Position numbers and translations under genes: made by a program | Shown here: one piece after another, positions 1 through 8,091 of the stretch | Position numbering within the stretch: position 1 is the first letter of the stretch | How the letters are laid out: each line of letters opens with the position of its first letter | Assembly: GCF_008065095.1 (NCBI RefSeq) | Contig: NZ_CP042911.1 | Span: forward strand, 1,830,001-1,862,000 | From: Gemmata obscuriglobus | GTDB lineage: Bacteria > Planctomycetota > Planctomycetia > Gemmatales > Gemmataceae | Reading direction: 5' to 3' | Length of the DNA: 32,000 nt | The notes under the pieces: model-generated | What the model saw: only the letters and a program-made list of their open reading frames with translations | Databases searched by the model: none | Told to the model about the DNA's origin: nothing

Positions 1-912
1 GGCGTGAAGCGGTTCGAGAACCCGCAGCCGACCGCGGAGGCGACGTGGGAGGTGCCGCTGGCGCCCGGCCCGCACACGGTCGCGGTGATCGCCGACTCGC
101 CCGTCAGCAAGGGTATGTCGAAGGTCGGGCAGGTGCTGCGCGACGGCGAGGTCCCGAAGCCGAACCTGTACGTGCTCACGATGGGCGTGGCGGCGTACCC
201 CGGCAAGCTGAAACTCAACTACAGCGCCACCGACGCCGAAATGCTGGCCAAAGCGTTTCAGGAGAAGTCCCGGGGCACCTTCGACAAGATCGAGGTGAAG
301 GTACTGACGGACAAGGCCGCTAGCCGCCAGGGCATCCGCGACGGGCTGACGTGGCTCAAGTCGAAGATGACCCCGCAGGACGTGGGCATCGTGTCCTTTT
401 CCGGGCACGGCTCCCGGGACCTGTTCGGTCGCTTCTACCTGGTCCCGTTCATCGAGTCCGACCCGACCGCCGACGAGAGCGAGTGGGCGCTGTCCGGCGA
501 CGAGTTCAAGAAGCGGCTGGAGGACATGCCGGGGCGGCTGGTCGCGATCCTGGACGCGTGCCACTCGGGCTCGGTGGCCGAGAAGGACGGCCCGCCGCAG
601 GCGGACTCGCTGGTCCGCGACCTGACCGCCGAGGACTCCGGGGTGATCGTGATGTGCGCGTCGCTGGGCCGGGAGTACGCGGCCGAGAGCAAGATCTGCA
701 AGGCCGGGTTCTTCACGCTGGGGCTGGTGGAGGGGCTGAGCGGGCACGCGGACGTGGACGGCGACGGGGTCATTTACATCCACGAACTGGACATGTACGC
801 GACGGCGCGGGTGCGCCAGTTGAGCGGCGGGCTGCAGAACCCGACCCTGGGGCGCCCGTCGGCGGTGAAACCGTTCGTGATCGCCAAGCCCGGGAAACAG
901 GCCGCTCCGTGA
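1..912 (+). CDS. Caspase-like cysteine peptidase (peptidase C14 family), 5'-truncated by the window edge
   Basis: Frame is open from nt 1. Caspase/metacaspase pattern YVLTMGV...ATDAEMLAKAF...VSFSGHGS (His codon 406-408) and AILDACHSGS (Cys codon 559-561), then FFTLGLVEGLSGHADVDGDGVIYIHEL. Followed by a strong terminator. Confidence 0.85.
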   Translation, partial: GVKRFENPQPTAEATWEVPLAPGPHTVAVIADSPVSKGMSKVGQVLRDGEVPKPNLYVLTMGVAAYPGKLKLNYSATDAEMLAKAFQEKSRGTFDKIEVKVLTDKAASRQGIRDGLTWLKSKMTPQDVGIVSFSGHGSRDLFGRFYLVPFIESDPTADESEWALSGDEFKKRLEDMPGRLVAILDACHSGSVAEKDGPPQADSLVRDLTAEDSGVIVMCASLGREYAAESKICKAGFFTLGLVEGLSGHADVDGDGVIYIHELDMYATARVRQLSGGLQNPTLGRPSAVKPFVIAKPGKQAAP

Positions 913-930
913 CCGGAACGGCGCCCGATC

Positions 931-969
931 AACGCCGCGCGGACGTTCCGCGCGGCGTTTTTGTTTTTT
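931..969 (+). terminator. Rho-independent terminator after the caspase-like gene
   Basis: Perfect 13-bp GC-rich stem AACGCCGCGCGGA / TCCGCGCGGCGTT with a 3-nt loop, followed by TTTTTGTTTTTT. Confidence 0.8.
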
Positions 970-1047
970 CGGGCGCAACCGGGACGCGCCGCCGGTCGCG
1001 CGGCAATACCTTTCTGACCGGTGCGGCCGGTCGCACGGAGGCGCACG

Positions 1048-2832
1048 ATGCCGGGTTCTGTTCTCCACGCCGTGGCGCGGCTGACCGCGCCCGATCCACG
1101 CACGGACGCGGGCCTGGTGCGGGCGTTCCTGACCGGCTCGGACGAGGGCGCGTTCGCGGAGCTGGTGCGGCGGCACGGGCCGACGGTGCTGGGCGTGTGC
1201 CGCCGCGCATTGGGCGCGACGCCGGACGCGGAAGACGCGTTCCAGGCGACGTTCCTGGTGCTGGTGCGCCGCGCCCGCTCGACCGAGTGGCGCGACGCGC
1301 TCGGCCCGTGGCTGTACGGCGTCGCGCTCAAGGTCGCCCGCAAGGCCCGTGCGGCCCGTGTGAAGCGCCGCACCCACGAACGGCCGGAGCGCCCGATGAC
1401 CGAACCTGCGACCCCGCCCGCCGAGCCCGACGACGCGGTCGCCGTTCTGGACGAGGAGCTGGCCGCGCTGCCGGCGCGGTACCGGGCGCCGCTGGTGCTG
1501 TGCGAGATCCGGGGCGCGAGCCGCCGGGACGCGGCCCGCGAGCTGGGGCTCGCCGAGGGCACGCTCTCCAGCCGCCTCGCCCGCGGGCGCAAGCTGCTGC
1601 GCGAGCGGCTCGCGCGGCGCGGGGTCGCGCCCGCGGCCGGTGGGCTGGCGGTCGCTGTGCCGGCGGGGCTGGCCGGGGCCACCGTGCGGCACGCGACCCA
1701 CGCACTGGCGCGGGCGGCGGGGGCCGTTCCGGTCGCAATTCTGTCTCTCACGGAAGAGGTCACGAAAACCATGATCGCGAAATGGAAACTGGCGCTGGCG
1801 GCGGTGGCCACCTGCGCCACACTCACCACCCTCGGCGCGTGGAACACATCGGCGCATCCCGTGCCGGTCAGTAACGTTTCGGCCGCAGTGGCACGAGCCG
1901 ACGAGAAGAAGTCGGCTCCGCCGGCCAAGCAACCCGCCCCTGAGCGGGCGAAGGCCGAGGACGGTGCGGAGCGGGTCGCCACTATTTTCGGCGATGTGGC
2001 CGTTACGCGCGAGCAGTTTACCGAACACCTCATTCGTCGGTACGGGCAGAAAGAGCTGGAACGGTTCGTGAACAAGCAGGTCATCGCGCATGCGTTCGCC
2101 CGCAAGGGGCTCGCGCTGGCCCCGGCCGACCCCGAGGCGGCGCTGAACGAGATCTGCACGGCGTCTCGGATGAGCCGCGAGCAACTCGCTCAGGCGGTAC
2201 AGAGCCAGGGCTTTACGCTCGCGGAGTGGAACGAGGATGTCAACCTCCCCCGCGTGATGCTGGCGCACATGTGTAAGGCCAAAGTGGCGCCCCCGACCGA
2301 AGCCGAACTGCGCCAAGCGTTCGACGTGCGGTACGGCGAGAAGCTCGACTGCCGCGTCATCATCTGGACAAACGAAGACGAAGCTCAAAAGGCATACGAA
2401 AAGGTGCGTGGCAGCGAGAAGGAGTTTGACGCCCACGCCCGTCGGTCCGCGGTGGCGGGCCAACCGCGAACCGGCGTGGCCGCCGACGGCCGCGTCGCGC
2501 CGATCCCGCGCGCTCAGCCGCTCAAAGAGGAAGAACAAGTCCATCACGCCGCCGTCAAGAACTTGCAGCGCGGGGACGTGAGCCCACTTCTTCGGATCGA
2601 GCCTGGCTCGTTCGGATTCATGGTCGTTAAGTGTGACCGGGTGATCCCGGCGGACAAAACGAAGTCGTTCGAGAAGGAGAAGGCGGCCCTGATGCTTGAG
2701 GCGCTCGACGCGAAGGTCGTGAACGAATTCCCGAGGTTCCGTAACGAGCTGATGCAGCAGGCCGCCCCGAAATACCACCTCACGTTCCCGGAGCGCGAGT
2801 CGCTCCCGAAGCCCGATCCGGCGAAGAAGTAA
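1048..2832 (+). CDS. ECF-type sigma-70 family sigma factor fused to one TM helix and a periplasmic SurA-N/parvulin(PpiC)-like domain
   Basis: ATG at 1048 preceded by GGAGG. Sigma region 2 (FAELVRRHGP..DAEDAFQATFLVLVRRA) and region 4 HTH (PLVLCEIRGASRRDAARELGLAEGTLSSRLARGRKLLRERL). TM helix KWKLALAAVATCATLTTLGAW. C-terminal ~330 aa show a rotamase-like pattern (DCRVIIW..EDEAQKAYEKV..EKEFDAHAR...GDVSPLLRIEPGSFGFMVVKC). ORF track start 1021 was trimmed to the ATG shared with the paralog at 4010. Confidence 0.85.
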   Translation: MPGSVLHAVARLTAPDPRTDAGLVRAFLTGSDEGAFAELVRRHGPTVLGVCRRALGATPDAEDAFQATFLVLVRRARSTEWRDALGPWLYGVALKVARKARAARVKRRTHERPERPMTEPATPPAEPDDAVAVLDEELAALPARYRAPLVLCEIRGASRRDAARELGLAEGTLSSRLARGRKLLRERLARRGVAPAAGGLAVAVPAGLAGATVRHATHALARAAGAVPVAILSLTEEVTKTMIAKWKLALAAVATCATLTTLGAWNTSAHPVPVSNVSAAVARADEKKSAPPAKQPAPERAKAEDGAERVATIFGDVAVTREQFTEHLIRRYGQKELERFVNKQVIAHAFARKGLALAPADPEAALNEICTASRMSREQLAQAVQSQGFTLAEWNEDVNLPRVMLAHMCKAKVAPPTEAELRQAFDVRYGEKLDCRVIIWTNEDEAQKAYEKVRGSEKEFDAHARRSAVAGQPRTGVAADGRVAPIPRAQPLKEEEQVHHAAVKNLQRGDVSPLLRIEPGSFGFMVVKCDRVIPADKTKSFEKEKAALMLEALDAKVVNEFPRFRNELMQQAAPKYHLTFPERESLPKPDPAKK

Positions 2833-2858
2833 CGGCACGTCGTTACCCCATCGGTCCG

Positions 2859-2884
2859 TGCGGCCGGATGTTCCGGCCGCATTT
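2859..2884 (+). terminator. Hairpin, candidate weak terminator or attenuator, between the first sigma fusion and the stand-alone paralog
   Basis: TGCGGCCGGA-tgt-TCCGGCCGCA 10-bp stem followed by TTTC. The T-tract is short, so function is uncertain. Confidence 0.45.
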
Positions 2885-2912
2885 CGGTCCCTCACGGAAG
2901 AGGTCGAGAGCG

Positions 2913-3929
2913 ATGATTACGAGACAGAAACCCGCCTTGGTGGTACTCACGGCGTGCGTCGTACTCACCGGAGCGGGCGCGTGGCGCACACCGGCCCAAC
3001 CTCCCGCCGGGCTGGCGGACAAGGCAAGCGCGGGGCCGACTGCACCGCTGCCGACGGGTAAGGCGGGTGCGGAGCCGGTGGCCACGATCTTCGGTGACGT
3101 GGCGGTGACCCGCGAGCAGTTCGCCGATCACCTCATCCGCCGGTACGGGCCGAAGGAGCTAAAGGGGTTCGTGTACCGACAAATCGTGAGCACCGTGTTC
3201 GCTCGCCAGGGGCTCAAACTGTCGCCCGAGGAAATCCAGGAGCAACTCGACCGCACCGCCGCCGCACTCAAGATGTCACGGGAGCAGTTGGGAGCGGATA
3301 TCTTGAAGAGCCAGGGAAAGACGATCGACGAGTGGCACGAGGACGTAAACGTCCCAATCATCATGCTCTCACGGCTCGCAAAAGCCAAAGCCGCACCTCC
3401 GACCGAAGCGGAGCTACGCCAAGCGTTCGACGTGCGGTACGGCGAGAAACTCGACTGCCGCATCATCATCTGGGGTGACGAAAAAGAGGCCCGTGCGGCT
3501 TACGAGAAGGTGTGCAGCAGCGAGAAGGAGTTCGACGCCCACGCTCGCCGCTGCACTCAGGCCGGACAGCCGCGATCGGGTATCGCGACCGACGGACGCG
3601 GCGAGCCGATTCCCCGGGCGCAGCCGTTTGAGGGCCACCCGGCGGAACAGGCCGCGCATGCGGCCGCGGCGAAACTCCGACCGGGCGAGGTGAGTCCCTT
3701 GATTCCCGTTGAGATTGAAGGGGAGCGGGGATTCATCGCGCTCAAATGCGACCGGATCATTCCGGCGGACCGAACGAAATCGTTCGAGAAGGAGAAAGCG
3801 GCACTCGCGGACGATGTCACGGGCGCAAAAGTAGACAAGGAGTTCCGAAGGCTGTCGAAAGAGATCATGAAAGAGGCTGCCCCGCGGTATCATTTGACGT
3901 TCCCGAAGATCGATCCGGCGAAGAAGTGA
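2913..3929 (+). CDS. Membrane-anchored SurA-N/parvulin-like protein; sigma-less paralog of the C-terminal part of 1048-2832
   Basis: Colinear protein similarity to residues ~250-603 of the upstream gene (VATIFGDVAVTREQF.., APPTEAELRQAFDVRYGEKLDCRIIIW, SFEKEKAAL, YHLTFP..DPAKK). N-terminal TM MITRQKPALVVLTACVVLTGAGAW. Start is placed at ATG 2913 (GGAAGAGG 9 nt upstream) rather than ATG 2868, which lies inside the hairpin. Confidence 0.85.
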   Translation: MITRQKPALVVLTACVVLTGAGAWRTPAQPPAGLADKASAGPTAPLPTGKAGAEPVATIFGDVAVTREQFADHLIRRYGPKELKGFVYRQIVSTVFARQGLKLSPEEIQEQLDRTAAALKMSREQLGADILKSQGKTIDEWHEDVNVPIIMLSRLAKAKAAPPTEAELRQAFDVRYGEKLDCRIIIWGDEKEARAAYEKVCSSEKEFDAHARRCTQAGQPRSGIATDGRGEPIPRAQPFEGHPAEQAAHAAAAKLRPGEVSPLIPVEIEGERGFIALKCDRIIPADRTKSFEKEKAALADDVTGAKVDKEFRRLSKEIMKEAAPRYHLTFPKIDPAKK

Positions 3930-4009
3930 CCGTGCGGCGGGTGGTGCGGCTTCCCGTCCGTGTTGGGAATCTCGATTGCGTTGTTGCTTCGGCGGCACGG
4001 GAGCAGAGT

Positions 4010-5515
4010 ATGCCGGTTTCGGTTCTTCACGCGGTGTCGCATTTGATCGCTCCGGACGATCGCACGGACGCAGCCCTGGTGCGCGCGTTCGTGATCGACT
4101 CGGACGAGGGCGCGTTCGCGGAGCTGGTGCGGCGGCACGGGCCGTCGGTACTGGGCGTGTGCCGGCGGGCGCTCGGTCCCACGCCGGACGCGGAGGACGC
4201 GTTCCAGGCGACGTTCCTGGTGCTGGTGCGCCGCGCCAGTTCGACGCCGTGGCGTGCGGGCTTGGGGCCGTGGTTGTACGGGGTGGCGCTGCGGGTGTCG
4301 CGGAAGGTGCGCGCGCGTCGGTCGCGTCGCGTGTCGCGAGAGCGTGGGGAGGTTCCGATGGTGGAGCCGGTGGCGCCGGCGTCGGACCCGGACGACGCCG
4401 GCGCGGTGGTGGACGAGGAGCTGTCGGGCTTGCCAGCGCGGTACCGTGAGCCGCTGGTGCTGTGCGAGGTGCAGGGGCTGAGCCGGCGTGCGGCGGCTCG
4501 GGAGTTGGGCGTGGCGGAGGGGACGCTGTCGAGCCGCCTGGCGCGGGGGCGCAAGCTGCTGCGCGAGCGGCTGTCGCGTCGCGGCGTGGTGCCGGTGGCC
4601 GGCGGGTTGGGCGTGGCGGTGCCGTCGGGTCTGGCGGGTGCGACGGTGCGCCACGCGGTGGCGGCGCTGGGACGCTCGTCGGGTGTGGTGCCGGCGGCGG
4701 TGTTGTCCCTCACGGAGGAGGTCACAAAGGCGATGATGGCGAAATGGAAGTTGGCCCTGGCGGTGGTGGCCACGTGCGCCACGCTCACCAGCCTCGGAGC
4801 CTGGAATACGCCCGCGTTGTCCGTACCGATCGCCAGAGCGGCACACGCGGAAACGACACGAGAACAATCGGGACCAGCGGCACCCGCGGATGCGATTCCT
4901 TCAGTCGAGATCGTTGCCCGGGTTGGTGAGAGCCGCGTCATTACCAACCACGACGTTCGCGGCGTCCTGTACCTGATGCCCGGAGCGAGGGGGGCGGAGG
5001 CGCTGGCCGCGGCACTCGGCGCGCCCGCGGGGACCGCGTGGCACAACGATCTGCCCGCACAGGCACTCCGCAAGGCGATCGAGCGGGAACTCATCCTGGA
5101 CGAGATGCACACGCGGCTGAAGAAGGCCAACAAGTTGGTCGTGCTCGACGAAATTCAAGAAGTAGCCGGACCGTCCACTGACCGGCAGTTGCGTGCGCTT
5201 CGTGACAGGACCGGGGCGAAGTCGGACGAGGAGTTCGTTGCGCGGCTTCGCACGCAAGGATTAACGGTGCAGGTGATCCGCCGCCAGATGGAACGCCAGT
5301 TCATGGCCGACCAGTACGTCGCGAGCGTGGTGAAGGCGCGCCTGAAGGGTGACGGCGTGACGCGCGAGAGACGCGAAACTGAGCGTGACGCGCTCATCGA
5401 TGAGTTGTGGCGGAAGGGAACCGTTCGCGTGTTCGATCCGCTCGCCCGTGGCGCATTGAAGCACCGCATCACGGCCCCCGCTCAGGAGCCGCCCACCGAA
5501 CCCGCAAAGGAGTGA
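4010..5515 (+). CDS. ECF-type sigma factor fused to one TM helix and a SurA-N-like periplasmic domain (no parvulin part)
   Basis: ATG 4010 gives MPVSVLHAV.., matching MPGSVLHAV of the 1048 gene. Sigma regions 2 and 4 are nearly identical to the paralog. TM KWKLALAVVATCATLTSLGAW. C-terminal VEIVARVGESRVITNHDV...RELILDEMH...QMERQFMADQYV resembles the SurA N-terminal chaperone domain. The upstream part of track ORF 3746-5515 overlaps the previous gene and is not coding. Confidence 0.85.
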   Translation: MPVSVLHAVSHLIAPDDRTDAALVRAFVIDSDEGAFAELVRRHGPSVLGVCRRALGPTPDAEDAFQATFLVLVRRASSTPWRAGLGPWLYGVALRVSRKVRARRSRRVSRERGEVPMVEPVAPASDPDDAGAVVDEELSGLPARYREPLVLCEVQGLSRRAAARELGVAEGTLSSRLARGRKLLRERLSRRGVVPVAGGLGVAVPSGLAGATVRHAVAALGRSSGVVPAAVLSLTEEVTKAMMAKWKLALAVVATCATLTSLGAWNTPALSVPIARAAHAETTREQSGPAAPADAIPSVEIVARVGESRVITNHDVRGVLYLMPGARGAEALAAALGAPAGTAWHNDLPAQALRKAIERELILDEMHTRLKKANKLVVLDEIQEVAGPSTDRQLRALRDRTGAKSDEEFVARLRTQGLTVQVIRRQMERQFMADQYVASVVKARLKGDGVTRERRETERDALIDELWRKGTVRVFDPLARGALKHRITAPAQEPPTEPAKE

Positions 5516-5658
5516 GCAGAAAAGAGGGCGGTGGCGGTCGTTTGGCGCGCCGCCCGCCGCCTTCTGCCCGCGGCCCGCTGTTCTCAGTTGCCATCGCACA
5601 CACCGGGGTTTACATTCAGCGACATTCCCTCGCCGAACGTTTCCCACCCGGAGCCGAC

Positions 5659-6942
5659 ATGTCCGCCGCTCAGTCCGCTGCGCCCCCGCTCTCGCTCCCG
5701 CTGCGAATCAATCTGTCCGTGATGATGTTCCTCCAGTTCGCGGTTTGGGGGGCGTGGTTCGTCGTGTTCTTCCCGTACCTCCTCGGGCTGAACTTCACGA
5801 GCAGCCAGGCCGGGGCGCTGATCGGCAACATGGCGCTCGGTGCCATCTTCTCAACCATCTTCGCCGGCTATATTGCGGATCGGCTGTTGGCCAGTGAGAA
5901 GCTAATGGCGATCTGTCACCTTGCGGGCGCGGGGGTGCTGTACCTGATCGCCCAAACCCAGGACACGAACCAGTACGGCACGCTGTTCGCGCTCACCTTC
6001 GTGTACGCGCTGCTGTACAACCCGACGCTGGTGCTGGCGAACTCGATCACGTTCGAGCACGTGCCGGACGGGCAGCGCGATTTCCCCGGCATCCGTGTGC
6101 TCGGCACGCTGGGCTGGATCGGGGCCGGGTTCGCGATCGATTTCTTGTTCAAGTCCGAAGGCAAAACGGCGGCCGCTACCAATGGCCCGCTGCTGATGGC
6201 CGCGGGGTTGTCGGCGGCGCTGGGCGTGTACAGCTTCTTCTTGCCCCACACGCCGCCAAAGGGTGAGGCGAAGGGCGTTCCGTTCGTCCGCGCCATCGGA
6301 CTGTTCAAGGATTTCTCGTTCGCTGCGTTCTTCATCGTGTCGCTGGCGATTACGGTGGTGCTGGCGTTTTACTACACGTCCACGTCGGACTTCCTGGCGA
6401 AGCAGTGCGGGGTGAAGGACATCGGGAGCACGATGAGCATCGGACAGGTGTGCGAGACCGTCTTCCTGCCGCTGCTCCCGCTGTTCCTGATCCGGCTCGG
6501 AATGAAATGGGTGCTGGCCCTGGGTATGTTCTGTTGGGGGCTGCGGTATTTCCTGTTCACCAACGCCGGCCCCGAAGGTGTTGGCTTCGCGATGGCCATC
6601 GTCGGCATCGCGCTGCACGGATTCTGTTTCGATTTCTTCTTCGCCGCCGGGTTCATCCACTGCGACAACAAGGCCCCGAAGGACATCCGCGCCAGCGCGC
6701 AGGCGCTGTTCAGTTTCCTCACCTATGGCGTCGGGATGTGGCTCGGTAGCCTCCTGTGCGGCATCCTCCAAGACAAATACACGAATCCCGAAACGAAGGC
6801 CGTGAACTGGAGCGAGTTCTGGATGGTGCCGAGCATCGGCGTGATGGTGTGCCTGGGGGTGTTCCTGTTGGTGTTCCGCGACCGCCCGGGGCGGATCGAG
6901 GAGCCGGCAGTCGCGGGTACAGCTGTGACCCCGCCGGCGTAA
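5659..6942 (+). CDS. MFS nucleoside:H+ symporter family transporter (NupG/XapB-like)
   Basis: From ATG 5659: LRINLSVMMFLQFAVWGAWFVVFFPYL, IADRLLASEK, DFPGIRVLGTLGWIGAGF, QVCETVFLPLLPLFLIRLGMKW, HGFCFDFFFAAGFIHCDNKAPKDIRASAQALF. This is colinear with my recollection of E. coli NupG, with about 12 hydrophobic segments. Confidence 0.85.
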   Translation: MSAAQSAAPPLSLPLRINLSVMMFLQFAVWGAWFVVFFPYLLGLNFTSSQAGALIGNMALGAIFSTIFAGYIADRLLASEKLMAICHLAGAGVLYLIAQTQDTNQYGTLFALTFVYALLYNPTLVLANSITFEHVPDGQRDFPGIRVLGTLGWIGAGFAIDFLFKSEGKTAAATNGPLLMAAGLSAALGVYSFFLPHTPPKGEAKGVPFVRAIGLFKDFSFAAFFIVSLAITVVLAFYYTSTSDFLAKQCGVKDIGSTMSIGQVCETVFLPLLPLFLIRLGMKWVLALGMFCWGLRYFLFTNAGPEGVGFAMAIVGIALHGFCFDFFFAAGFIHCDNKAPKDIRASAQALFSFLTYGVGMWLGSLLCGILQDKYTNPETKAVNWSEFWMVPSIGVMVCLGVFLLVFRDRPGRIEEPAVAGTAVTPPA

Positions 6943-7134: not shown

Positions 7135-8091
7135 ATGTCCACCGACCTTTCGCGCCGGGCGGTGCTGGCCGGCGGCGCCGCCGCTCTCGTCGCACGTCAC
7201 GCCGAGGCCCGCGCCGATGCGCCCAAATCGTCCTTCGGGTTCTGCCTGAACACCAGCACCGTTCGCGACAAGGACGGAAAGTCGCGTCCCATCACCGAAC
7301 TCATCGACATTGCCGCGAAGGCCGGGTACGACGCTTTTGAGCCGTGGGTGTCGGAAGTCGACGCCTACCTGAAGGGCGGCGGCACGCTGAAGGAGTTGCG
7401 CAAGCGCGTCGCGGACGCCGGACTGAAAACCGCGGACCTGATCGGCTTCGCCGAGTGGATCGTGGAGGACGCCGACCGCCGCAAGAGGGGACTGGAGCAG
7501 GCCAAACGCGACATGGACTGGGCCGCCGAACTGGGCTGCCCGCGCGTGGCCGCCCCGCCCGTCGGCGCGACCGGCGGGGGCAGCAAGCGCGACGACCCGA
7601 AGTTCACGCAACCGGTCATCGATCTGGTCGCGGCGGCGGACCGCTACCGCGCGCTGCTCGACGTGGGGGCCAAGATGGGCGTCACCCCGGTCGCCGAGGT
7701 GTGGGGGTTCTCGCGGACCATGCGGCGGCTCGGCGAGGCACTATTGGTCGCGATCGAGTGCGGCGACGCGCGCGGGTGCGTGCTGCCGGACGTGTACCAC
7801 CTCTACAAGGGCGGATCGGATTTTGCCGGGCTGCCGCTCCTTTCGGCCTCGGCGATCGGGATCTTCCACGTCAACGATTACCCCAAGATCGGGCGCGACC
7901 GGATCAACGACGCCGACCGCGTGTACCCTGGCGACGGGATCGCGCCGCTGAAGGACGTGTTCGCGGCGCTGCGGAAAATGAACTACACCGGGTTCGTGTC
8001 GCTGGAACTGTTCAACCGCGACTACTGGAAGCAGGACCCGCACGCGGTCGCGAAGACCGGACTGGCGAAAATGAAAGCCGTCGCAGGGTGA
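7135..8091 (+). CDS. Sugar phosphate isomerase/epimerase (xylose isomerase-like TIM barrel) with Tat-type signal
   Basis: MSTDLSRRAVLAGGAAALVA..A twin-arginine-like leader. The body (FGFCLNTST..., AAKAGYDAFEPW, GCPRVAAPP, VAEVWGFS, IFHVNDYP, FVSLELFN) fits the AP-endo2/xylose isomerase-like TIM barrel pattern. Confidence 0.8.
   Translation: MSTDLSRRAVLAGGAAALVARHAEARADAPKSSFGFCLNTSTVRDKDGKSRPITELIDIAAKAGYDAFEPWVSEVDAYLKGGGTLKELRKRVADAGLKTADLIGFAEWIVEDADRRKRGLEQAKRDMDWAAELGCPRVAAPPVGATGGGSKRDDPKFTQPVIDLVAAADRYRALLDVGAKMGVTPVAEVWGFSRTMRRLGEALLVAIECGDARGCVLPDVYHLYKGGSDFAGLPLLSASAIGIFHVNDYPKIGRDRINDADRVYPGDGIAPLKDVFAALRKMNYTGFVSLELFNRDYWKQDPHAVAKTGLAKMKAVAG

Follow-up and report, generated by a model that had tools for sequence, protein, structure and literature searches.

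In-frame internal translation initiation sites (iTIS), which give N-terminally truncated isoforms, have been described in Escherichia coli for arcB (ArcB-C), infB, clpB and mrcB (Meydan et al., Ribo-RET, 10.1101/520783). Extracytoplasmic function (ECF) sigma factors fused to a transmembrane (TM) anti-sigma-like extension are known from IutY of Pseudomonas putida (ECF243) and from the actinobacterial groups ECF48, ECF52 and ECF53, e.g. SCO4117 (PMC8999054), and planctomycetal ECFs with heterogeneous C-terminal extensions are a known expansion (PMC7671368, PMC8567305). The window analyzed here, a stretch of 32,000 nt of the Gemmata obscuriglobus genome (contig NZ_CP042911.1, positions 1,830,001 to 1,862,000), carries two such ECF sigma fusions, called fusion 1 and fusion 2, and between them a stand-alone gene without a sigma domain. 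A 15-nt element, CTCACGGA(A/G)GAGGTC, occurs three times in this window, once in each fusion and once before the sigma-less gene, and each copy is followed by an ATG. The comparisons described below suggest that the element and its ATG form a conserved in-frame internal translation initiation site at the boundary between the sigma and TM parts of the fusions. This interpretation was reached by computation only and is assigned a probability of roughly 0.6.

Like the iTIS of E. coli, the candidate site consists of a Shine-Dalgarno (SD)-like sequence and a start codon inside an open reading frame (ORF), lies at a domain boundary and is conserved in homologues. Locally reduced synonymous variation, which is found here, was used there too as support (10.1101/520783). 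As in iTIS of the ArcB-C type, the predicted second product is the free C-terminal module of a signalling protein. Unlike the E. coli sites, which belong to one orthologous gene each, this site is kept across a whole expanded paralog family, and its short product, predicted here from the sequence, would be the membrane and extracytoplasmic half. Since the Met opens a signal-anchor, this product would target itself to the membrane. With IutY and ECF52 the fusions share the combination of sigma2, sigma4, linker, TM segment and extracytoplasmic domain in one polypeptide, the lack of an adjacent anti-sigma gene and the predicted membrane-held state with release by regulated proteolysis. They differ in that no recognizable anti-sigma domain (ASD/ZAS) was found in the linker of about 50 amino acids (aa) by Pfam or NCBIfam search, and in the internal start, as none is described for IutY or the ECF48/52/53 proteins. 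A literature search for ECF fusions with an internal start found none described, and neither the motif nor an internal start is mentioned in the literature on planctomycetal ECF extensions, the terms being absent from PMC7671368. Translationally coupled sigma/anti-sigma operons are comparable in that the membrane partner has its ribosome-binding site inside the sigma-coding sequence, towards the 3' end, but here there is no stop codon and the sigma frame continues into the membrane protein. Split versions exist only as nonsense or frameshift variants of uncertain status (locus L074 and the fusion 2 orthologue of Gemmata JC717).

The element and its copies in the window

An earlier note, made from the letters of the window, had described the three copies, their ATGs, the spacers and the identity of two of the copies, and all of these coordinates and factual statements were correct. 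The features concerned are:

1048-2832, + strand: fusion 1, 594 aa; ECF sigma (regions 2 and 4), linker of ~50 aa, TM segment and periplasmic SurA_N/parvulin-like domain
1747-1761, + strand: element copy 1, CTCACGGAAGAGGTC, coding for L-T-E-E-V; SD-like core GGAAGAGG at 1752-1759
1771-1773, + strand: candidate internal start of fusion 1, M-I-A-K-W-K followed by the TM segment, 11 nt past GAGG
2858-2882, + strand: hairpin GUGCGGCCGGA-UGU-UCCGGCCGCAU of 11 bp, found by folding, between fusion 1 and the stand-alone gene
2870-2905, + strand: non-coding deletion scar matching the linker-coding DNA of fusion 1 (1726-1761), 31/36 identical
2891-2905, + strand: element copy 3, leader of the stand-alone gene, inside the scar; SD-like core at 2896-2903
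2913-3929, + strand: stand-alone sigma-less gene, 338 aa; signal-anchor/TM segment and PrsA/SurA-like periplasmic domain (the PrsA match is weak)
4010-5515, + strand: fusion 2, 501 aa; ECF sigma, linker, TM segment and a periplasmic domain unlike that of fusion 1
4709-4723, + strand: element copy 2, CTCACGGAGGAGGTC; SD-like core GGAGGAGG at 4714-4721
4733-4735, + strand: candidate internal start of fusion 2, M-M-A-K-W-K followed by the TM segment

Searching the window with the pattern CTCACGGARGAGGTC and tolerating two mismatches returned these three sites only (1747-1761, 2891-2905 and 4709-4723). None of 100 dinucleotide-preserving shuffles gave three matches (mean 0.21), which rules out a chance origin of the copies. 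The downstream ATGs at 1771, 2913 and 4733 follow the element after 9 nt in both fusions and after 7 nt in the stand-alone copy, and the copies of fusion 1 and the stand-alone gene are identical at 15/15 positions. Exact matches of this length or longer are not rare among the window paralogs, whose shared coding part contains runs of 32, 17 and 16 nt. The homology of the stand-alone protein to the fusions begins at the Met, as the note had stated, and this residue (M242) is invariant in an alignment of 17 sequences.

Within the fusions, the candidate starts rank high among possible initiation sites. Among the 43 in-frame ATG/GTG codons of fusion 2, ATG 4733 binds the anti-SD most strongly (-12.3 kcal/mol), and it lies in the least structured 40-nt window of that gene (rank 1/1465). 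ATG 1771 ranks 3/32 for anti-SD binding among the in-frame ATG/GTG codons and 31/1744 for local structure in fusion 1. Both fusions match PF04542 (Sigma70_r2) and PF08281 (r4_2) above the cut-offs and TIGR02937 (sigma70-ECF) with 63.0 and 62.6 bits (cut-off 42.9), and both ORFs are uninterrupted from the sigma part through the extracytoplasmic domain. A hydrophobic stretch of ~20 residues after a K-rich n-region was read from the sequence as the predicted TM helix, and SurA_N/Rotamase_2-like matches lie downstream of it in fusion 1 and its orthologues.

Other functions of the element were considered as well. Neither a sigma-70 promoter nor an intrinsic terminator was found at the element, no conserved alternative-frame ORF is present there, and the region 800-5700 of the window has no Rfam match up to an E-value of 1. 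The RTG codons at -3 and -4 were rejected as true starts because they lie only 0-2 nt from the SD. A programmed frameshift at the SD was rejected since neither a slippery heptamer (X XXY YYZ) nor a CUU-UGA type sequence is present in GAAGGAG TG RTG AAR GCC ATG or in the window copies. A 4-bp CCUC/GAGG hairpin was discarded as a regulatory structure, as its pairing is not conserved because the Leu codon varies freely in the family.

Codon choice, Shine-Dalgarno pairing and mRNA structure in the family

A genomic scan of one genome per species, with a sigma4-linker-TM alignment as the query, yielded 55 loci, nearly all from Gemmataceae. Of these, 43 have the motif (A)LTEGV[VM]K[AT]M with LLTKLK-like residues and the TM segment after it. 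Past the TM segment the members have widely different sizes and sequences; the fixed module of the family comprises the linker, the ALTEGVxKxM motif and the TM segment, with varied sensor domains after it. Codon choice in the motif was compared with that elsewhere in the same ORFs, for 37 non-redundant genomic members and for 71 non-redundant members from a metagenome scan, for which a pattern degenerate at every third position was made to exclude retrieval bias. The family DNA consensus is GCC GCN YTN ACR GAA GGA GTG RTG AAA GCC ATG TTG CTG ACC AAA CTC AAG. Strong synonymous constraint on the T-E-G/E-V codons, which the earlier note had expected if selection acts on the nucleotides, was confirmed in both samples, with the following counts (codons numbered from the ATG; p-values are inflated for the reason given below):

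Gly(-5): genomic GGA 23/35 (5.0 expected) and GGC 0 (16.9 expected), p=1.6e-17; metagenomic GGA 56/71 (12.3 expected) and GGC 0 (30.7 expected), p=2e-41
Glu(-6): genomic GAA 24/35 (15.3 expected); metagenomic GAA 65/71 (32.1 expected), p=4e-15
Thr(-7): genomic ACA 12 (3.8 expected) and ACC 5 (13.5 expected), with AC[GA] enriched
Val(-4): genomic GTG 26/34 (13.6 expected)
Lys(-2): genomic AAA 22/35 (10.4 expected); metagenomic AAA 49/71 (20.6 expected)
Leu(-8): all six codons in use
Lys(+4): metagenomic AAA 40/64 (18.6 expected)
Lys(+6): metagenomic, at background (p=0.6)

At third codon positions the G+C content, 0.77 in the background, drops to 0.30-0.57 for codons -9 to -5 and is 0.38 at codons -2 and +4. 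The order of the Gly codons, GGA > GGG > GGT > GGC, tracks SD quality (AAGGAG, AAGGGG, AAGGTG, AAGGCG) and not A/T content. A simple A/T-rich or rare-codon cluster was rejected, since GGT is not enriched and the common codons GTG and GCC are. Where the same peptide occurs in unrelated proteins (cytochrome-c-like, MFS group, EF-hand), its Gly is coded by GGC or GGG, apart from one close MFS cluster with GGA. These proteins and the third-position-degenerate rescan counter a bias of the retrieval tool as the cause. The constraint is thus very probably at the nucleotide level and SD/start-like.

The pairing with the anti-SD, whose sequence was taken as canonical, points in the same direction. The observed value is -8.5 kcal/mol against -7.4 for null sequences coding for the same amino acids, and the gain from codon choice reaches z -3 to -7 at offsets of -19 to -15 nt from the ATG. 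The family consensus SD is GAAGGAG, 11 nt before the ATG. These genomes do use SD sequences: among 143 putative gene starts in the loci studied, GGAG is most frequent 5-9 nt ahead of the ATG and tails off to 12 nt. This enrichment supports the choice of anti-SD. The mRNA is also locally unfolded: the mean folding energy in 40-nt windows is about -13.5 kcal/mol on both flanks and -5.3 centred on the ATG. Compared with synonymously recoded nulls, the structure is weaker by z=+6.4 at -10 and +5.9 at +2, with values of about 0 at control positions.

ATG is present in 43/43 genomic and 92/92 metagenomic motif-bearing members, where it is part of the retrieval pattern. Four of the 12 genomic loci without the motif are truncated, and the relatives shown have ATG, or GTG in L016, L025 and L030. 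The expected invariance of the Met therefore stood for all motif-bearing members and failed in these three distant relatives, which keep the SD. Variation of the peptide is accompanied by retention of the SD. The variant ALTQEVLKTM is coded with CAG GAG GTT, which gives AGGAGG, and ALTEAGVKAM retains GGAG. Distant Gemmata relatives that lack both the motif and the Met still have an SD and a start codon:

L016: AAG GGA GGT TCA CCC GTG CGG AAG
L025: AAA GGG AGG TTA ACG GTG CGC AAG
L030: GGAAGGGGA, 6 nt, then GTG
L036 and L059: GAGGGG, 6 nt, then ATG
L055: CAGGGAG, 11 nt, then ATG

In L016 and L025 an identical AAGGGAGGTT is read in two frames, 6-7 nt before a GTG ahead of an RK-TM segment. Together with the other variants, this provides an argument for frame independence within coding sequence.

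Taken at face value, the T-E-(G/E)-V codons would spell an SD (GAAGGAG in the family, GGAAGAGG and GGAGGAGG in the window) with an invariant ATG 11 nt further on, and the surrounding A-rich stretch would have little local structure. Ribosomes would start there in addition to making the full-length tethered sigma. The short product would comprise a signal-anchor-like n-region (M-x-x-x-K-x-K), the TM segment and the extracytoplasmic domain without sigma, and it may partner or compete with the sensor domain of the tethered sigma. On this evidence a short isoform is probably produced from intact fusions.

Sigma-less genes and recombination in the array

The closest relative of the window's stand-alone gene was found in Gemmata sp. 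JC673 (96% protein identity). Further orthologues with 58-66% identity adjoin a sigma fusion in Gemmata JC717, Gemmata SH-PL17 and Frigoriglobus tundricola, and the sigma-less gene is old. An alignment of -110..+80 nt around the Met codon in seven fusions and six stand-alone genes showed that stand-alone upstream DNA matches the linker-coding DNA of fusions over about 45-55 nt, in the window from 2870 to 2905. The element is therefore not an isolated conserved island, as 31 of the 36 positions are identical to 1726-1761. The scar of a duplication and deletion, which the note had offered as the alternative, is historically true also, given this upstream homology and its resemblance to the fusion of the same genome. 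Because of the scar, the alignment argues for descent of the window's stand-alone lineage from a fusion. The scar is at least as similar to the fusion of the same genome as to stand-alone copies of other genera, although the identities agree only modestly: SH-PL17 has TTGTTCCTCACGGAAGGGG and Frigoriglobus GGAGTG.TGAAGAC.ATG in both the fusion and the stand-alone upstream region. In Frigoriglobus tundricola (L002 4900-5100) the stand-alone gene lies upstream of the fusion and keeps a fusion-type upstream motif, GCGCGGCAATACCT, that is also present before fusion 1 of the window (~990-1003), as well as the sigma N-terminal codons LVADFLRTA joined straight to the end of the linker. These remnants show that the deletion end-points differ from those of the Gemmata copies.

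In the stand-alone copies of JC673, JC717, SH-PL17 and Frigoriglobus, the element lies 9 nt before the ATG and in frame. Only the window copy has a 2-nt deletion in the spacer, directly after the scar homology, and its start therefore lies 9 nt after GAGG instead of 11 nt. The conservation of the element out of frame in non-coding DNA, on which the case for nucleotide-level selection had partly been built, is thus true in the window, but it carries less weight because the frame shift is recent and confined to this genome, on top of a scar. The case itself was strengthened by the codon bias, the structure trough and the sigma-less genes starting at the site, so that the earlier interpretation as a whole is partly supported. 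Different frame-breaking indels are found in the upstream region of different lineages (-2 nt in the window, +1 nt in JC673/JC717, -1 nt in Frigoriglobus), and the scar upstream of the leader is not translated.

In JC673 and JC717 the stand-alone upstream regions have 44 open codons without any ATG, GTG or TTG, which leaves the conserved Met as the only possible start, with the element as its leader. Translation of the element from an upstream start is excluded for these two genomes by the missing start and for the window by the frame shift; upstream starts are possible in Frigoriglobus (GTG at -26, annotated), SH-PL17 (TTG at -10) and L110 (ATG at -16). ATG 2868 was rejected as the start of the window's stand-alone gene, since it lies in the hairpin loop, lacks an SD and is not matched by an ATG in JC673 or JC717. 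The region -55..-1 of the window is only 78% identical to that of JC673, yet the 15-mer differs at 1 base, which indicates that the constraint is focused on the element. The stand-alone gene 2913-3929 would thus be an old fusion derivative that lost its sigma-coding DNA and has this region as its only ribosome-binding site, with the recent 2-nt deletion shortening the spacer to 9 nt and breaking the old frame. The hairpin at 2858-2882 lacks a T-run and is therefore not a canonical terminator, and a terminator scan of the window lists none at this position. Its 3' arm is scar DNA, and JC673 has an equivalent hairpin.

Several metagenomic sigma-less genes also start at the conserved ATG, preceded only by the last 24-27 nt of the element region in unrelated contexts. 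In L063 and L085 the upstream gene ends in a TGA 14-17 nt ahead of the element, in L111 the element follows a T-run, and in L156 and L171 the DNA upstream is intergenic and AT-rich. Part of the linker, but no sigma domain, is kept in L109 (with a 902-aa downstream ORF) and L125, and L074 has a nonsense codon in the linker. The sequence thus serves as a true leader in genes that have no other. Evolution may have run either from leader to codons or from codons to leader.

The array itself recombines. Fusion 1 is chimeric: aa 1-345 are 89-97% identical to fusion 1 of JC673/JC717, while aa 346-594 are 78-96% identical to the JC717 stand-alone paralog P0002 and only 31-56% to the JC fusion. The junction lies at ~2083-2130, about 100 codons past the element, and is the sole crossover mapped at the locus. 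The periplasmic domain of fusion 1 has thus been exchanged by recombination with a sigma-less copy next to it. In JC717 (L001 5001-7122) the stand-alone gene is present as a tandem pair, and the 130-nt upstream regions of the two copies, which take in the last ~50 nt of the gene before, are identical. JC673 (L004) has one stand-alone copy, and the window has one plus the chimera. Such differences among close relatives point to frequent unequal recombination. The JC717 orthologue of fusion 2 (L001 7119-8000) is split by an extra G in a G-run in sigma region 4; its sigma ORF ends at 7760, and the TM/periplasmic part, together with its element (7903-7917) and ATG (7928), lies in another frame. 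The split is either natural, in which case this part would depend on the internal start, or an error of the draft assembly.

Upstream of fusion 1 the window contains two further features:

4-912: 3' end of a WD40-repeat/caspase-like gene; the window opens inside it, its last domain is caspase-like (HG...DACHSG) and the protein is very large
931-959, + strand: strong intrinsic-terminator-like hairpin, a 13-bp stem with 10 G-C pairs followed by a T-run, TTTGTTTTTT

Orthologues of the WD40/caspase-like gene code for 1188-1231 aa (L001/L003/L004, gene 1-3017). The hairpin would terminate this gene, so that fusion 1 starts a new transcription unit.

Alternative explanations and implications

Several observations weigh against internal initiation at the element. 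The ATG, Lys(-2) and the T-E-G-V residues are part of both retrieval patterns. The paralogs are not independent, which inflates the p-values, and what carries the argument is how the sites differ from one another. The residues T-E-G-V by themselves impose most of the resemblance to an SD (-7.4 of -8.5 kcal/mol). The spacing of 11 nt falls in the tail of the distribution at real starts (mode 5-9 nt), and few SD-led genes have been reported in Planctomycetes (PMC5397173). Ribosomes elongating through the sigma part would compete with internal initiation. The codon bias runs past the ATG in the metagenomic members, with TTG at Leu+1 (21/40), ACC at Thr+3 (28/40) and CTC at Leu+5 (27/45), and this is not explained by an SD alone. 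Neither is a stabilized GC-rich hairpin ~43 nt upstream (-65 to -25 nt; z=-5.2 in the family loci L060-L179). Leu, Thr, Val and Lys are kept as residues while their codons vary, which indicates a peptide-level function too. Furthermore, a search for a ribosome-profiling data set of Gemmata obscuriglobus found none; N-terminomic data were not searched for.

The upstream hairpin is more stable than the amino acids predict, owing to the choice of codons (GCG GCG... against ...GCC GCC), and the 11-bp hairpin of the window's stand-alone gene lies at the equivalent place. Its role may be that of an insulator, of a processing site or of a barrier to ribosomes. Its conservation also bears on the alternative that survives best, in which the SD-like sequence acts during elongation, as a pause before the TM segment that aids sigma folding or membrane targeting, or as the site of an RNA-binding regulator or small RNA that co-regulates the family. 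The nucleotide-level constraint is real and spans ~-30 to +18 nt, exceeding the need of an SD, and the spacing is sub-optimal for initiation, both of which would fit such a role. This explanation is nevertheless unlikely. The pause would precede any TM residue and therefore cannot help the signal recognition particle to recognize the TM segment, a start-capable codon (ATG, or GTG in Met-less relatives) always follows the SD, and the structure minimum is centred on it. Sigma-less genes have the same sequence as their leader, and no Rfam family matches.

Less probable still is that LTE(E/G)VxKxM is a juxtamembrane peptide motif and the stand-alone copy an inert deletion remnant kept similar by gene conversion. 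Such a remnant would account for homology reaching 45-55 nt upstream of the ATG, for the lineage-specific frame-breaking indels (-2 in the window, +1 in JC673/JC717, -1 in Frigoriglobus) and for the species-specific variants that the scar shares with the fusion of the same genome, all the more as array paralogs recombine in the fusion 1 chimera. The invariant Leu(-8) with its variable codons likewise speaks for constraint on the peptide. What this leaves unexplained is the site-specific bias for GGA over GGC, GAA and AAA in two independent samples with Lys(+6) at background, the SD kept under other peptides and in another frame, and the structure trough deepened by codon choice. It also leaves unexplained the persistence of only the last 24-27 nt before sigma-less genes in unrelated contexts and the single difference in the 15-mer from JC673 within a region, -55..-1, that is just 78% identical.

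A similarly low probability is assigned to the possibility that ~50 nt are kept uniform by concerted evolution, as a homology tract for shuffling or converting sigma and TM-sensor modules and not for translation. It would fit the different histories of sigma2-sigma4 and the C-terminal extensions in Planctomycetes (Pinto & da Fonseca 2020, PMC7671368), the mosaic genes and tandem paralogs of the locus and the variants shared between stand-alone upstream regions and same-genome fusions, but conversion would homogenize all synonymous sites, whereas Leu(-8), Thr(-7) and codon -1 are free while GGA and GAA are near fixed, protein variability begins past the TM segment and not at the element, the sole mapped crossover lies ~100 codons downstream, and the same bias is found across many genera and metagenomes.

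If the element is an internal initiation site, a further, more tentative proposal can be made. The ALTEGVxKxM motif may be a translated ribosome-binding leader, which came about when the sigma module was joined in frame to the 5' leader of genes for signal-anchored sensors. Every fusion would then be a two-product gene, giving the tethered sigma and a stoichiometrically coupled sigma-less sensor that sets the threshold of sigma release as a partner or decoy. As such a leader works without the sigma part, stand-alone genes would be viable at once and would therefore recur.

Gemmataceae have many ECF sigmas fused to a TM segment and diverse sensors, for which no anti-sigma partner has been identified. 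Should internal initiation hold, each of these genes would supply its own sigma-less sensor, which would allow a heteromer or decoy model for proteolytic release. An internal start would further account for two features of the family: the juxtamembrane motif is conserved better than any other part of the extension, and sigma-less paralogs arise repeatedly and can be expressed at once. Annotation pipelines may then miss a second proteoform in many genes, and the family would provide a case of family-wide overlap between protein coding and translation-signal coding that is detectable from sequence alone.

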